From the sequence record PV714129.1: DNA of 64,000 nucleotides; one strand, given 5' to 3'. Position numbers and translations under genes: made by a program. Source of the stretch: Escherichia phage Mizar. Under the pieces are notes generated by a model. That model searched no databases and was not told where the DNA came from. It saw only the letters and a list, made by a program, of their open reading frames with translations. This document shows positions 9,416 to 45,688 of the stretch, piece after piece (within the stretch, counting starts at the first letter, position 1; each line of letters begins with the position of its first letter).

Positions 9416-9450
9416 ATAGGTCTATTATATCATAATATTTAGAGACCTAT
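9416..9450 (-). promoter_or_regulatory. Stem-loop with embedded TATAAT upstream of gene 55
   Basis: Inverted repeat ATAGGTCT/AGACCTAT flanks a minus-strand TATAAT; no clear -35 box. Confidence 0.35.
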
Positions 9451-9466
9451 CTTAAAGCACGAGATA

Positions 9467-9736
9467 CTATCGGAGCAAACAATAAGCCTGAAACACTTTT
9501 TCCATTAAACGTTTGAACTCATGGATATCGATATAAAGCTCAATAAGACCGGCATTATAAAGAAAATCTAAAAAGTTCTCATGTGTTTCGTTATAGTCGC
9601 CTTCGTTTAATTGAGATACATGAGTTTCCCAAAAACCGACACCTTTAACAAATGGAAAATACGTAACTTTCATAAAGTTGTCGACGTAAAATTCGCCCAG
9701 CTTTTCTTCAGTTATACTGATTCGAGTTAATTTCAT
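9467..9736 (-). CDS. Hypothetical protein
   Basis: 89-aa ORF. Confidence 0.45.
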   Translation of the reverse strand: MKLTRISITEEKLGEFYVDNFMKVTYFPFVKGVGFWETHVSQLNEGDYNETHENFLDFLYNAGLIELYIDIHEFKRLMEKVFQAYCLLR

Positions 9737-9960
9737 TCTAGTTCCTTTGCTGCTTCAAGAGCAGCATCCAGCGAATCAAATTGGTCAACGAAATCAATAT
9801 TCAACGCATCGTCAACCGTAGCATATAACCACCATTGTTTGAATTCATATTCTAGGATAAATCCAGGACCTTCAATCTGAGGAAGACCTAGGCTATTTGT
9901 ACCAACTTCGTAACCAGCTAGACGCAGGTCATTAATCAAAGTTTCTGTTAATACGCTCAT
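9733..9960 (-). CDS. Hypothetical acidic protein
   Basis: 75-aa ORF, overlapping stop/start with neighbours. Confidence 0.45.
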   Translation of the reverse strand: MSVLTETLINDLRLAGYEVGTNSLGLPQIEGPGFILEYEFKQWWLYATVDDALNIDFVDQFDSLDAALEAAKELE

Positions 9961-10289
9961 TTTGCCGCCTTAACAATTTTCAGGTCAACGAATTTTTTCT
10001 TACGTTGATTTTTCATACGACGGATAGTCTTTTCAGAGATTTCATGTTTCTGATAAGCTTTAGATTCAACACCAAATGCAGCAACGTCAAATTCAGAAAG
10101 AATATATTGCACTAGAATTTCGCGAATAGAATTACGTCCAATTTTCTGGTCGTGTTTTTGCATGATTTCATAAAGACGGAATTCCCACGCGTCAAGAACT
10201 TGAGGAGTAACAATATTGCCGGATTCCAGAAGAGCAACAACTTTATCGAAAGCGAAAGAATTAACTACGTTTTTGATTTTAGTAGACAT
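9957..10289 (-). CDS. Hypothetical protein
   Basis: Start at MSTKIKNV with GAGGA SD; promoter cassette directly upstream. Confidence 0.5.
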   Translation of the reverse strand: MSTKIKNVVNSFAFDKVVALLESGNIVTPQVLDAWEFRLYEIMQKHDQKIGRNSIREILVQYILSEFDVAAFGVESKAYQKHEISEKTIRRMKNQRKKKFVDLKIVKAAK

Positions 10290-10320
10290 ATTATTTTCCT
10301 CGGTTATTTTATTATCCAAC

Positions 10321-10355
10321 GAGAGAATTATACTCATCTCTCAAGAGTTGTATAT
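10321..10355 (-). promoter_or_regulatory. Early-promoter stem-loop cassette (PeSL-like)
   Basis: Minus strand TATAAT inside the loop of GAGAGA/TCTCTC repeat; near-duplicate of cassette at 40207-40242. Confidence 0.5.
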
Positions 10356-10594
10356 TATTTTTTAAGCATGAAAAGTAAGTAATTTGTATCACGTGGAGTG
10401 ATATCAACACCCATATCAAAGATGCCTTTATAGATCGGGTATTTGTTTTCGGTTGTATCGAAGCTGAAACTATTTCCATCACATCTAACAGTAATAGCAT
10501 CTGTTAAAATGTCATACTCAATCCTAACAATTGAATCCCCAATTTTAACGTCGAGGTGTTTTTTGAATTTGATAAAATCTAATTCTTGGGCCAT
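10355..10594 (-). CDS. Hypothetical protein
   Basis: 79-aa ORF. Confidence 0.45.
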   Translation of the reverse strand: MAQELDFIKFKKHLDVKIGDSIVRIEYDILTDAITVRCDGNSFSFDTTENKYPIYKGIFDMGVDITPRDTNYLLFMLKK

Positions 10595-10657
10595 GATATT
10601 TTCCTCATTTTAAGACGATAGGAAGATAATAACATGTCTTCCTATCGTTGTACATTA

Positions 10658-10858
10658 TTAACCGAACTTTTTAGCGCCTTTCCAGCCTTCGTACATAACT
10701 GCACAAGTCAGTAGTACAGCGTGCTGGCATTCTTTGTATTTGTAAATCCAGAACCAGCGTAAGAAGTCTTCGTCCTCAACACCATTGAGTTTCATATTGG
10801 CAAAGAATTCTGCACGTTCTTCACGAAGTTGCCATGACACAATATTTTCAGGATTCAT
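10658..10858 (-). CDS. Hypothetical protein
   Basis: 66-aa ORF. Confidence 0.4.
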   Translation of the reverse strand: MNPENIVSWQLREERAEFFANMKLNGVEDEDFLRWFWIYKYKECQHAVLLTCAVMYEGWKGAKKFG

Positions 10859-10990
10859 TTAAATTTTCCAGTTACCGTTTTCATCAATAAATTTAATCCA
10901 GTCATTTACTGACCACTTAGTTGTATCGCCTTTTGGAGCAGAATTTAAAGTGTAGAACCCTTGCTTAAAAAGCCAGCGTTTGATATTCAT
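10859..10990 (-). CDS. Small ORF (43 aa)
   Basis: ATG with GAGGA SD immediately after the stop of the upstream gene. Confidence 0.3.
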   Translation of the reverse strand: MNIKRWLFKQGFYTLNSAPKGDTTKWSVNDWIKFIDENGNWKI

Positions 10991-10997
10991 AATTTCC

Positions 10998-11291
10998 TCA
11001 ACTGTAACGATAACATTCGTTAGCTTTACGTTTGGCTTCAGTATGAGAAGTATTATAATCATACTCTTCTTTACTGTAAACATCTTTTTTCAACTTACGA
11101 ACTTCTTTGCGGAGTTGTCGATTCATTTCATTCTTGACTTCAGAATCAACGCCTTTCATACGTTTCCATTTATCTGAGCGGAAGATGTTTTCAACCATGT
11201 CTTTGTGACTAACACCGTCAGGAGCTTTACGCTTACCAAAATAGTCGTAATCGCGAACTTTCAAATCTTTACGACGATATGTTTTACCCAT
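10998..11291 (-). CDS. Hypothetical basic protein
   Basis: Start at MGKTYRRKDL with GAGGT SD; Lys/Arg-rich. Confidence 0.45.
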   Translation of the reverse strand: MGKTYRRKDLKVRDYDYFGKRKAPDGVSHKDMVENIFRSDKWKRMKGVDSEVKNEMNRQLRKEVRKLKKDVYSKEEYDYNTSHTEAKRKANECYRYS

Positions 11292-11298
11292 AAGTACC

Positions 11299-44054: not shown

Positions 44055-44058
44055 TTAC

Positions 44059-44349
44059 TCACCGTACCATATTAATGTAATTATACTCAATACATTCAAG
44101 ATTTAAAGGATTCTTGAAAATATCATATTCAAGAGGACCTTTTTCTGTTTCAATAAAGAAATCAAAGTTCACGCTATTAAATTTACGGTCTTCCCAAAGT
44201 AATTTAACCTGTGAAGATGAACGGTCAATATAAACCTTTTCAACTTCAAAGAGGGTCAGAATACCGTAGTCATCAACTAGTGCTTTAGCTGCACGTTGGT
44301 CGCTTTCATAACCGTTCTTGACGGATGATACTTTAGCATAAAGAATCAT
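44059..44349 (-). CDS. Hypothetical protein
   Basis: 96-aa ORF. Confidence 0.45.
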   Translation of the reverse strand: MILYAKVSSVKNGYESDQRAAKALVDDYGILTLFEVEKVYIDRSSSQVKLLWEDRKFNSVNFDFFIETEKGPLEYDIFKNPLNLECIEYNYINMVR

Positions 44350-44726
44350 GAATGTTCCACCACTTCAAAGGTGTGAGCATCAACAATATGATACCAGTCA
44401 AAATTTTCTTCAGCGTTTTTATAAATTTCGCGAAGAGCCTCAACAGTTTTTCCTGTAGCAACAAGGTCGTCAATACCACCAAGAGGATAACAGTCATAAC
44501 CAGCAAACAGAAGGAAATTAATAGTTTCTGTAGGTTCTGGATGCAAAACACCATTATCATCTACCACTTCAAAGAAAGTGTAAGAAGGAGTACAAGTTTT
44601 AATCCAGGCCCATGCTTGAGCTGCTGAATCAAACGGATTACGGAATAAACGACAATCCGGGTCTTTAGAAGGATTTGCTTCAAAATCCGCATATACATGA
44701 TATTTCATTTTACTCACCTTTTGCAA
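44346..44726 (-). CDS. Hypothetical protein
   Basis: 126-aa ORF. Confidence 0.5.
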   Translation of the reverse strand: MQKVSKMKYHVYADFEANPSKDPDCRLFRNPFDSAAQAWAWIKTCTPSYTFFEVVDDNGVLHPEPTETINFLLFAGYDCYPLGGIDDLVATGKTVEALREIYKNAEENFDWYHIVDAHTFEVVEHS

Positions 44727-44895
44727 TTTTATCCATAACGATAGCGATTAAGCCGATTAGAAATGCTACTACCAATGAGATAGAATTTTCTGTTGTTGTC
44801 AGTAGTCCACAAATGAATCCTACAAACATCGAAAAACTAAAAGCCATTGAAGCAATTACTACAGCAACATTACGAATCAGTTCAGCGCGTTTCAT
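44710..44895 (-). CDS. Small membrane protein
   Basis: 61 aa, largely hydrophobic; GAGGAGAA SD. Confidence 0.45.
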   Translation of the reverse strand: MKRAELIRNVAVVIASMAFSFSMFVGFICGLLTTTENSISLVVAFLIGLIAIVMDKIAKGE

Positions 44896-44912
44896 TTTAT
44901 TCTCCTCAGTAG

Positions 44913-44952
44913 TTGATAGGGTAATAGTATCACCACCCTATCTAAAAGTAAA
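44913..44952 (-). promoter_or_regulatory. Early-promoter stem-loop cassette (PeSL-like)
   Basis: Minus strand GTTTAC, 18 nt, TACTAT; inverted repeat GATAGGGT/ACCCTATC. Confidence 0.55.
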
Positions 44953-44964
44953 CGGTTTTATAAA

Positions 44965-45273
44965 CTATTTTATTCCGCGTGATGCAATCGTATTCTGCCG
45001 TTTAACACCAGTTTGTTTAAAGTCATGACTGTCGATTTGATCGGTGCGAGCAACTCCGAATGATGATTTAATCTTAGCTTTAGATCCTTTAGTTATAGAA
45101 ATAAACATCTCGGAAGACCCTTTCTTAAAGTCTGATGCAGATACTTCAACACCGTTCTTAGCAAGTGACCTCAGAATTGCATCCGCGTACTCATCATCAA
45201 GACTCGCTTGAGTATTAATAACAAATGTCTTTGGTGCAGCCGCTTCATTGATAAATTCTTTATAGGTTTTCAT
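44965..45273 (-). CDS. Internal protein (IPI-like) with CTS
   Basis: MKTYKEFINEA N-terminus; location after the tRNA cluster as for T4 ipI. Confidence 0.6.
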   Translation of the reverse strand: MKTYKEFINEAAAPKTFVINTQASLDDEYADAILRSLAKNGVEVSASDFKKGSSEMFISITKGSKAKIKSSFGVARTDQIDSHDFKQTGVKRQNTIASRGIK

Positions 45274-45295
45274 TTTATTTTCCTAATTAATTTTG

Positions 45296-45333
45296 ATAGG
45301 ACTACTATAACATAGTCCTATTAGCATGTAAAC
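45296..45333 (-). promoter_or_regulatory. Early-promoter stem-loop cassette (PeSL-like)
   Basis: Minus strand GTTTAC, 18 nt, TATAGT; inverted repeat ATAGGACTA/TAGTCCTAT. Confidence 0.55.
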
Positions 45334-45336
45334 TAC

Positions 45337-45624
45337 TTACAGAAGGGTTTTTGCAATAATTTTAAGCTGAGCTACAGAAATATGCTTAGCTTTAAACAGT
45401 GCGGTCTCTTCGGCCGGAGAGATAACAACAGTAGCGCCATCTTTCTTAGCAGACCATCCATCCCCTAAGTAAACAGTACCTTTTACTTCTTCACCATCAA
45501 CCAGACTAATCATCGGTTTACCCTCACGTCCTTTATTTGCTTTAATAACTTCGGAAGTAAGGGTTGCTTCGGTCAGAGTAGAAACGTTAGCAACAGGTGA
45601 TATAAATTCTTTATAGGTTTTCAT
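45337..45624 (-). CDS. Internal-protein-like protein with CTS
   Basis: MKTYKEFISPVANVSTLTEA N-terminus. Confidence 0.6.
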   Translation of the reverse strand: MKTYKEFISPVANVSTLTEATLTSEVIKANKGREGKPMISLVDGEEVKGTVYLGDGWSAKKDGATVVISPAEETALFKAKHISVAQLKIIAKTLL

Positions 45625-45650
45625 TTTATTTCCTTGAGGTTGTTTATTTG

Positions 45651-45688
45651 ATAGGATGATAGTATCACACCATCATCCTTATGTAAAC
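45651..45688 (-). promoter_or_regulatory. Early-promoter stem-loop cassette (PeSL-like)
   Basis: Minus strand GTTTAC, 18 nt, TACTAT; inverted repeat AGGATGAT/ATCATCCT. Confidence 0.55.

Follow-up and report, generated by a model that had tools for sequence, protein, structure and literature searches.

What does an inverted repeat do when it is built into a promoter? The question arises on the minus strand of Escherichia phage Mizar (sequence record PV714129.1), from which a stretch of 64,000 nucleotides, here called the window, was analysed. Between positions 9,416 and 45,688 of the window, a first-pass annotation had marked about 19 early-promoter cassettes with an inverted repeat around the -10 box and, in at least four of them, with the Shine-Dalgarno sequence (SD) of the downstream gene as one arm of the repeat. 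The reading that we consider fairly probable, from predicted folding and from comparison between phages, is that the cassettes carry known T4-type early promoters, that their hairpins would form only in RNA started further upstream, and that in a subset (class B) the hairpin would make protein output depend on the early promoter of the gene itself.

Early promoters and their standard leader

Comparison of window positions 25000-33000 with the databases matched 891 phage records, the best of which were Escherichia and Shigella Tequatrovirus at 95-98% identity. T4, T2, RB14 and PST were ~81% identical to positions 21000-45900 over the conserved parts. Judged by its sequence, the window is a T-even Tequatrovirus segment, and the cassettes lie where a T4-type genome has its classical early, 'hyperplastic' genes.

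The motif GTTTAC-N17/18-TANNNT was matched 19 times in the window, 18 times on the minus strand, while dinucleotide shuffles gave 2.06 ± 1.37 matches on both strands together (maximum 5). The enrichment was thus about 9-fold and nearly confined to the early-gene strand. A position weight matrix made from the sites, as the first-pass annotation had suggested, returned 16 minus-strand and no plus-strand sites and added an ATGTAC variant at 40528; a relaxed scan found GTGTAC in place of GTTTAC at 35858 and 23085, and ATTTAC at 40242. Cassettes are named here by the upstream-most coordinate of the -35 (29859, for example, is regB), and all are on the minus strand. A scan of the window with the generic sigma-70 consensus showed no enrichment, with 69 sites observed and 67.5 and 62.6 expected. 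The enriched signal is the T4-specific promoter and not generic sigma-70.

Every good site shared one layout: the -35, the spacer, the -10, then after six bases the expected start with a conserved ATCAA, a 5' untranslated region (UTR) of 21-28 nt, an SD and an ATG. The good sites stood 5' of an open reading frame (ORF) in the same orientation and at a fixed distance, including those of regB and denV. The promoter consensus was AGTTTACA...TGnTAnnATAnnCCTATCAA / TGnTAnnAT with an A-rich upstream region, in which an UP-like, A-rich block (nnnnTnAnAAAnnAGTTTACA) lay at about -40 to -44, and nTGnTA stood before or at the -10. With this uniform layout and 18 minus-strand matches where about 2 would be expected on both strands, the early-promoter cassettes of the first-pass annotation were borne out.

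For T4 early promoters, a -35 of GTTTAC at -36 to -31 has been published (Nolan 2006), and an A-rich upstream region and a TG/GT-rich stretch before the -10 have also been described (Nolan 2006; Hinton 2010). T4 early promoters have the same GTTTAC, the same 17-18 nt spacer, a TAnnnT -10 often preceded by TG, conserved bases around +1, and a position 5' of early genes; at the promoter level no difference was found. By sequence, then, the units are T4-type early promoters, read by the host sigma-70 RNA polymerase and joined to a short, standard 5' UTR with its ribosome-binding site, and one such unit precedes each of many small early genes. From promoter geometry, transcription would start about 7 nt past the -10. 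The reviews of these promoters name 'additional regions of consensus' but do not mention a cassette-specific inverted repeat (Nolan 2006; Hinton 2010), and literature searches on inverted repeats in T4 early promoters and on T4 start-site mapping found nothing relevant.

Four exact GTTTAC-N18-TAnnnT matches were located within coding sequence (11052-11081, 16250-16279, 31888-31917 and 38287-38316, minus strand), without the standard UTR, SD and ATG and without an inverted repeat. They may have arisen by chance or may serve as early promoters within genes. A scan of viral metagenome contigs with GTTTAC-N17/18-TANNNT-N6-ATCAA (14 fixed bases) hit unrelated contigs, mostly once each and by chance, and was set aside.

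Inverted repeats and their strand bias

A cassette-specific inverted repeat was present in about 13 of the 18 cassettes, and its 5' arm lay in the spacer between -35 and -10 in all strong cases. A cassette's own spacer and own downstream segment formed a duplex of -13.0 kcal/mol on average, compared with -8.4 kcal/mol for cross-cassette pairs, and 0 of 20,000 permutations reached the observed mean. Whole-cassette folding gave z = -2.6 to -6.2 in eleven cassettes. The repeat around the -10 thus held for most of the cassettes for which it had been proposed. It was non-significant at 41088, 23085, 18958 and 40528, as also at 26229 (whole-cassette z), and at 17978 (helix score only).

The repeats fell into two main classes. 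Class A comprised nine cassettes (45688, 45333, 44953, 40242, 37428, 36126, 35858, 25780 and 21619), whose stems of 8-14 bp join a 5' arm in the spacer to a 3' arm that extends from the end of the -10 to about +1/+6 and leave the SD unpaired. Class B comprised four, 29859 (regB), 32831 (denV), 26229 and 11783, with 41088 (ORF at 41031) a weak fifth. Here an anti-SD arm (TTCTCCTC, TTCCTCC or TCCTC) directly follows GTTTAC, the SD together with a few neighbouring bases forms the 3' arm, and the -10 is in the loop. A third, weak type, a small CCA-AGGA-TGG hairpin entirely within the spacer, was seen at 18958 and 40528. Arms of the AGGA...TCCT type that flank the -10 were common (e.g. TAGGACTA/TAGTCCTA).

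Since the 5' arm invariably precedes the -10, RNA initiated at the cassette would not contain it. The start, about 7 nt past the -10, would be downstream of the 5' arm, so that the hairpin would be possible only in read-through RNA.

To this set were added the equivalent regions of T4, T2, RB14, Shfl2 and Dhakavirus MX01, giving 90 cassettes, 79 of them unique. Across the six phages, a helix score of at least 7 was reached by 47% of the 79 unique cassettes and by 8.6% of non-orthologous swapped pairs (p = 1e-7). In orthologous cassettes the pairing was retained and the sequence had changed. The helix search penalises G·T and A·C equally, yet the 36 unique strong helices contained 343 Watson-Crick pairs, 17 G·U and only 3 A·C (binomial p = 0.0026). 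Since A·C is G·U on the opposite strand, this bias indicates selection on the sense strand. The target of selection is most simply RNA, rather than the DNA (as duplex, cruciform or palindromic protein site) or an antisense transcript. Chance or shared ancestry alone was ruled out by the permutation tests together with the compensatory changes, and a single palindromic operator by arm sequences that differ among cassettes.

The same strand bias bears on the view that the repeats act as DNA, either as recombination hot spots or cruciforms for module shuffling or as operators for a dimeric protein such as an early-promoter shut-off factor. Comparable elements of phages RB49 and phi1, the promoter-early stem-loops (PeSLs), have been proposed as recombination sites, and mini-circles have been detected in these phages (Arbiol 2010; Comeau 2014); the mechanism of early-promoter shut-off is not known in the literature. 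Of the ends of BLAST homology blocks between positions 9500-45900 and T4, T2 or MX01, moreover, 20-23% lay no more than 60 nt from a cassette, compared with 9% of random positions (2.3x, P = 0.01-0.03). An excess of breakpoints is, however, expected for any intergenic region, and recombination needs the shared promoter and UTR homology, not an inverted repeat. Nor would duplex DNA or a protein palindrome be expected to give 17 G·U to 3 A·C, and arms that differ so widely argue against one sequence-specific protein. We regard a DNA-level role as improbable. For genome evolution, the sense-strand bias indicates that the stem-loop of PeSL-like elements is selected as RNA, and not only as a recombination site.

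Predicted SD masking in class B cassettes

SD accessibility was predicted by folding as the probability that the SD is unpaired, in read-through RNA (promoter included) and in promoter-initiated RNA. In the regB cassette (29800-29859, minus), the -35 GTTTAC is at 29859-29854, the -10 TACTAT at 29836-29831 and the ATG at 29802. The 5' arm TTCTCCTCTAGTTG (29853-29840), right after the -35, pairs with CAACTAGAGGAGAA (29822-29809), which includes the SD. The helix of 14 bp had a predicted energy of -21.3 kcal/mol (z = -4.8), and the SD was unpaired at 0.21 in read-through and 0.73 in promoter-initiated RNA. In the denV cassette (32772-32831, minus; -10 TACTAT 32807-32802, ATG 32774), the 5' arm TTCCTCCAAG (32825-32816) pairs over 10 bp with CTTGGAGGAA (32787-32778), which has the SD inside it (z = -6.2), and the corresponding values were 0.10 and 0.62.

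The other two members of the class precede short ORFs. In the cassette of a 59-aa ORF (26171-26229, minus; ORF at 26173), the 5' arm TTCTCCTC (26223-26216) pairs over 8 bp with the SD GAGGAGAA, and the SD was unpaired at 0.22 in read-through and 0.74 in promoter-initiated RNA. An intrinsic terminator, GCCCC...GGGGCTTTTT, lies upstream of it at about 26242-26268. In the cassette of a 60-aa ORF (MTIEDKEIKV; 11724-11783, minus; ORF at 11726), TCCTCgATAG pairs with CTATaGAGGA, the values were 0.29 and 0.89, and a terminator-like hairpin is found upstream at 11876-11894. The spacer of the 167-aa ORF cassette (41029-41088, minus) contains a degenerate anti-SD, TTCTTCCCTAG against CTACAGAGGAA; its weak helix was non-significant on folding (z = 0.08, SD unpaired 0.54 vs 0.62).

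Three of the four cassettes in which the SD had been named as a repeat arm could therefore be traced: 29810-29859 (regB), 32780-32831 (denV) and 26179-26229, the last with the pairing present though its whole-cassette z was -1.1. The fourth, 23047-23085, did not show it, since the SD was unpaired at 0.54 in read-through and 0.61 in promoter-initiated RNA (z = +0.5) and the best helix, of 6 positions, misses the SD. Among 85 gene starts, the three longest SD-containing helices all belonged to cassettes, with the 5' arm always directly after the -35.

Two further hairpins served as a check. The gene 49 homologue (157 aa; 15579-15612, minus), an already known case and hence the positive control, has its SD paired within the hairpin ACCCTTATCTATTTAAGGTAAGGGT (unpaired at 0.04). 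In the gene 4 homologue (149 aa; 49138-49208, minus), GTCTCCTT pairs with AAGGAGGAC (SD), a late-promoter-like TATAAATA lies between the arms, and the SD was unpaired at 0.12 vs 0.49. Recovery of both hairpins in the control set indicates that the masking measure works.

The regB cassette was followed through upstream regions taken from 14 further phages found via the RegB protein. The arms are TTCTCCTCTAG/CTAGAGGAGAA in the window, TTTTCCTCTT/AAGAGGAGAA in T4 and CTCCTGTAG/CTACAGGAG in MX01. With arm sequences that differ, the SD of regB was masked by a spacer arm in Tequatrovirus, Dhakavirus, Gelderlandvirus, Karamvirus-like/an Enterobacter phage, Mosugukvirus and a Klebsiella phage; across these genera the SD was unpaired at 0.01-0.21 and the arms were 7-15 bp. 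In Serratia phage 4S and Shigella phage fPSFA the promoter sequence pairs with the AUG instead. The helix register slides between phages, and own arms were for this reason compared with swapped arms by permutation, not by column-wise covariation in a MAFFT alignment. For eight distinct regB variants, 5 of 40,320 permutations matched or beat the own arms. regB of the RB49-like phage kaaroe is without a cassette, so no orthologous comparison with RB49 could be made.

The denV arms have likewise changed, to CTCCTGTAG/CTACAGGAG in T4 and, in MX01, to GTTCTC, located between the -10 and +1, with GAGAAC. Compensatory change of the regB, denV and nrdC.8 cassettes across phages supports, at the level of sequence, differential masking of the SD. 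Folding, the geometry of the 5' arm and this compensatory evolution agree with the original proposal that read-through RNA would hide the SD while cassette-initiated RNA would leave it free.

A helix of this kind could also serve translational coupling, in which a ribosome ending the upstream gene melts the anti-SD arm and the downstream gene is translated from read-through RNA. The spacing invites this view: 10 of 12 class B cassettes have 2-7 nt between the upstream stop codon and the -35, so that the 5' arm begins 8-13 nt past the stop. A terminating ribosome, however, unwinds mRNA to roughly 8 nt past the first base of the stop codon, which would spare most of a 10-14 bp helix. At 26229 and 11783, furthermore, the stop is 48 and 112 nt away, with the terminator between. 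Coupling of this form seems very improbable.

If SD masking is instead the function of class B, read-through RNA would be untranslatable for the gene concerned and promoter-initiated RNA would have a free SD. Expression would be confined to the first minutes, and the gene would be insulated from RNA that accumulates off upstream promoters. The same helix may bear on cleavage by RegB. RegB cuts single-stranded GGAGRAYARAA and is inhibited by secondary structure (Durand 2006). The cassette UTRs in the window share the GGAG and A-rich character of RegB/S1 sites, and three match GGAGRAYARAA exactly (44895-44915, 25722-25742 and 23028-23048), with several others near; these matches make it probable that the standard UTR is at the same time a site of inactivation by RegB. 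In read-through RNA, we infer, such a site would be buried in the class B helix and the RNA thereby shielded from RegB, because the enzyme needs a single-stranded GGAG; the papers cited here do not report this link. The regB mRNA is itself a known RegB target, and regB expression is known to be tightly controlled. Masking could explain how the dose-limited RegB is made in a short early pulse despite polymerase reading through from upstream early and middle promoters.

SD-masking structures of T4 have been listed only for e, soc, 49, I-TevI and some homing-endonuclease genes, and there the internal promoter is late or middle/late (Uzan and Miller 2010). In e, soc, 49 and I-TevI, as predicted for the window, the SD or AUG is paired in the long RNA, and a promoter between the arms yields a short RNA with a free ribosome-binding site. 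The T4 promoters delay translation until the late period, whereas class B has an immediate-early sigma-70 promoter with the anti-SD in its spacer, for which the opposite timing is predicted. T4 lysozyme (gene e) is under 'late-only' hairpin control, to which class B would then be the 'early-only' counterpart. The gene 4 hairpin described above has the late-promoter-in-hairpin layout, and gene 4 is absent from the list of Uzan and Miller 2010. Arbiol 2010, Comeau 2014, Uzan and Miller 2010 and Durand 2006 describe no anti-SD in an early-promoter spacer, although an earlier account in Miller 2003 or Repoila 1994 is possible. The promoters and a PeSL-like cassette organisation being already known, the gain is incremental: an early promoter inside an SD-masking hairpin would be a modest new variant of the e/soc/49 principle.

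Several observations weigh against SD masking as the function. In an 80-nt context, it was not commoner in cassette genes than in 61-68 other minus-strand genes (25% vs 21% by accessibility), and a helix score of at least 7 was found in 4/17 cassette genes and 8/68 others (p = 0.19). Two of the class B cassettes are weak on their own, with z = -1.1 (26229) and -2.0 (11783), and little read-through RNA may reach these two because a terminator precedes them. The class also switches between orthologues. The cassette of nrdC.8 is class A in the window and an SD-masking class B in T4, RB14, Shfl2 and MX01, and the regB hairpin is class A in one Klebsiella phage, so that SD masking is dispensable at a given gene. 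The cross-phage counts (47% vs 8.6% and 17 vs 3 above, 4/40 vs 12/38 below) are not phylogenetically independent. Lastly, only 4-5 of ~19 cassettes mask the SD and the majority leave it free; masking cannot therefore be the general function of the hairpin.

A broader version of the reading extends it to the T-even phages in general. In this version, translation and RegB exposure would depend on where a transcript originated, through an anti-SD or anti-AUG in the promoter spacer that would leave read-through RNA silent, an arrangement kept at regB by compensatory change in at least six genera, and the commoner hairpin at the -10 would be a second insulator, acting as RNA between closely packed early genes. 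The papers cited here describe neither point. We put this forward tentatively, as somewhat less likely to hold than not. For annotation and engineering, each cassette would unite promoter, UTR and insulation from upstream transcription in a compact part.

Class A hairpins, termination and the remaining cassettes

In class A the hairpin would be an intercistronic structure in read-through RNA, with the SD free. It might act as an attenuator, as a 3' barrier for the upstream cistron, or as a 5' hairpin after processing. Most likely it is an attenuator or RNA-decay barrier where genes are too tightly packed for a separate terminator. Strong-repeat cassettes started no more than 16 nt from the upstream stop codon in 35 of 39 cases, whereas half of the weak-repeat ones had a gap of 40-107 nt. 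A terminator-like hairpin lay upstream of 4/40 strong-repeat and 12/38 weak-repeat cassettes (p = 0.025, phylogenetically uncorrected). The pattern fits a structure that matters where read-through from the preceding gene is unavoidable.

It also fits another account, in which the hairpins are terminators or attenuators that halt polymerase from upstream cassettes, as proposed for the RB49/phi1 PeSLs, and the SD pairing is incidental. Strong repeats stand where there is no space for a separate terminator and are rarer behind a terminator-like hairpin, and one RB49 PeSL stem-loop lowered downstream lacZ about as strongly as rrnB T1 (Arbiol 2010). No T-run, however, follows any cassette hairpin, and none of the cassette hairpins was among the 43 terminator-like hits in the window, while canonical or terminator-like hairpins exist separately upstream of 26229, 23085 and 11783. 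The stems are AT-rich, at about -13 to -21 kcal/mol, and T4 biology needs extensive extension of early transcripts. Termination also leaves unexplained a 3' arm that tracks the SD of regB with compensatory changes in at least six genera. As an account of the hairpins as a whole it appears unlikely, and RNA hairpins limited to read-through transcripts, with SD masking in class B, remain the preferred reading.

The first-pass annotation had likened the cassettes to the PeSLs of RB49-like phages. The literature was the right one (Arbiol 2010; Comeau 2014), but an RB49-like identity is ruled out by the 95-98% identity to Tequatrovirus and the ~81% identity to T4, and the PeSL papers do not describe SD masking. 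The PeSL of RB49 and phi1 is a strong sigma-70 promoter with a stem-loop, commonly between the -35 and -10 or over the -10; promoter and terminator activity has been shown for example PeSLs, and recombination between PeSLs has been proposed (Arbiol 2010). Like the cassettes of the window, it combines an AT-rich upstream region with a promoter, a stem-loop, an SD and a start codon, and it recurs before small ORFs in hyperplastic regions. The RB49 promoter, however, is a near-perfect TTGACA-N17-TATAAT, whereas the cassettes of the window have a GTTTAC -35. RB49 stems are often polyG/polyC, as in TTGACA-GGGGAG...CTCCCC-TACAAT, where the SD is uninvolved; those of the window are AT-rich and without G/C tracts, although the position of the stem, with its 5' arm in the spacer, agrees.

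The elements of the T-even internal-protein locus described by Repoila 1994, with weaker AT-rich stems, were considered analogues and not homologues of the RB49 PeSLs (Arbiol 2010). The term was later extended to T4/PST (TTTACW-N17-TAYWAT) and to KVP40/nt-1 (Comeau 2014). The window agrees with the T4/PST PeSL in promoter consensus, SD, start codon and repetition. As given in a legend of Comeau 2014, however, the T4/PST stem-loop (AGNA-loop-TCNT) is just upstream of the promoter, whereas the arms in the window lie inside and after the promoter and flank the -10. Neither paper makes SD masking part of the concept. Both Arbiol 2010 and Comeau 2014 propose termination or attenuation and recombination, and the words 'sequester' and 'translation' do not occur in Arbiol 2010. 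An Rfam scan found no family at any cassette.

The class A cassettes, all on the minus strand, share their geometry and differ in their arms. The one at 45622-45688 precedes an internal-protein-like gene (95 aa, MKTYKEF...); its paired arms AGGATGAT and ATCATCCT surround the -10 (z = -3.75; SD free at 0.78) and differ from the GATGAGGTA/TACCTCATC of the T4 ipI cassette. At 45271-45333, before a second internal-protein-like gene (102 aa), the arms are ATAGGACTA and TAGTCCTAT (z = -3.0). The trna.4 homologue (61 aa; cassette 44893-44953) has GATAGGGT with ACCCTATC (z = -2.7), and its UTR sequence GGAGAATAAAA is a RegB/S1 consensus site. In the ATTTAC-variant cassette of an e.6-like gene (197 aa; 40169-40242), GAGAGCA pairs with TGCTCTC (z = -2.55), replaced by GAGGACA/TGTCCTC in the MX01 orthologue.

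Arms with one G·U each were found at 37368-37428, before a 79-aa ORF (GATAGGGCTAC with GTAGTCCTATC; z = -4.5), and at 36057-36126, before a 66-aa ORF (AGGTCTGTA with TATAGACCT; z = -2.7). The GTGTAC-variant cassette of a 101-aa ORF (35798-35858) pairs TGATAGGACTA with TAGTCCTATTA (z = -4.0), and the cassette of a 36-aa ORF (25720-25780) pairs TTGGTAGGACTA with TAGTCCTACCAA over 13-14 bp (z = -6.1). The cassette of the nrdC.8 homologue (175 aa; 21561-21619), discussed above for its change of class, has AGGTCTAT with ATAGACCT (z = -2.65).

The remaining cassettes, also on the minus strand, carried weaker structures. The ATGTAC-variant cassette of a 75-aa ORF (40467-40528) has an intra-spacer hairpin ACGCCA-AGGA-TGGTGT that is non-significant alone (z = -1.0), and the cassette of a 316-aa ORF (18898-18958) has AACCA-AGGA-TGGTT (z = -0.96). 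This CCA-AGGA-TGG spacer hairpin, with its SD-like loop (18929-18958 and 40499-40528), is singly non-significant and recurs in T2, T4 and MX01 at different genes. No significant inverted repeat was found in the GTGTAC-variant cassette of a 326-aa ORF (23026-23085; z = +0.5), which has a terminator-like hairpin upstream at 23105-23121, or at the GTTTAC/TATAAT match with SD and ATG of a 91-aa ORF (17918-17978).

At the 9416 end of the range, where a further cassette had been placed, a module of -10 and inverted repeat does stand upstream of gene 55 (9392-9466, minus), with a MotA-box-like TGCTTTA in place of GTTTAC. The TGCTTTA is 23 nt before TATAAT, too distant for a standard middle promoter. 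Two structures are nested there: the inner repeat ATAGGTCT/AGACCTAT surrounds TATAAT, and the SD is covered by the outer helix UAUCUC/GAGGUA. The structure (z = -3.5) is kept in T4, T2 and MX01, and its arms form a compensatory series through a G·U intermediate, from GGTCT/AGACC in the window through GGTCT/AGATC in T4 to GATCT/AGATC in T2.

The gene order on the minus strand, compared with the T4 record, was 55, nrdH, nrdG, nrdD, 49, nrdC, tk, vs, regB, denV, ipII/III, e, tRNAs, ipI, 57, 1, 3, 2 and 4, with late baseplate genes on the plus strand from ~49.2 kb. At the gathering score, Rfam recognised only three tRNA genes in the window (42509-43459), where the T4 record annotates eight tRNAs with rnaC and rnaD. 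The two internal-protein-like genes at 45271-45688 are in tandem (MKTYKEFISP, 95 aa; MKTYKEFINE, 102 aa), each with its own cassette, where T4 has a single ipI. Such an arrangement agrees with reports of shuffling at internal-protein loci.

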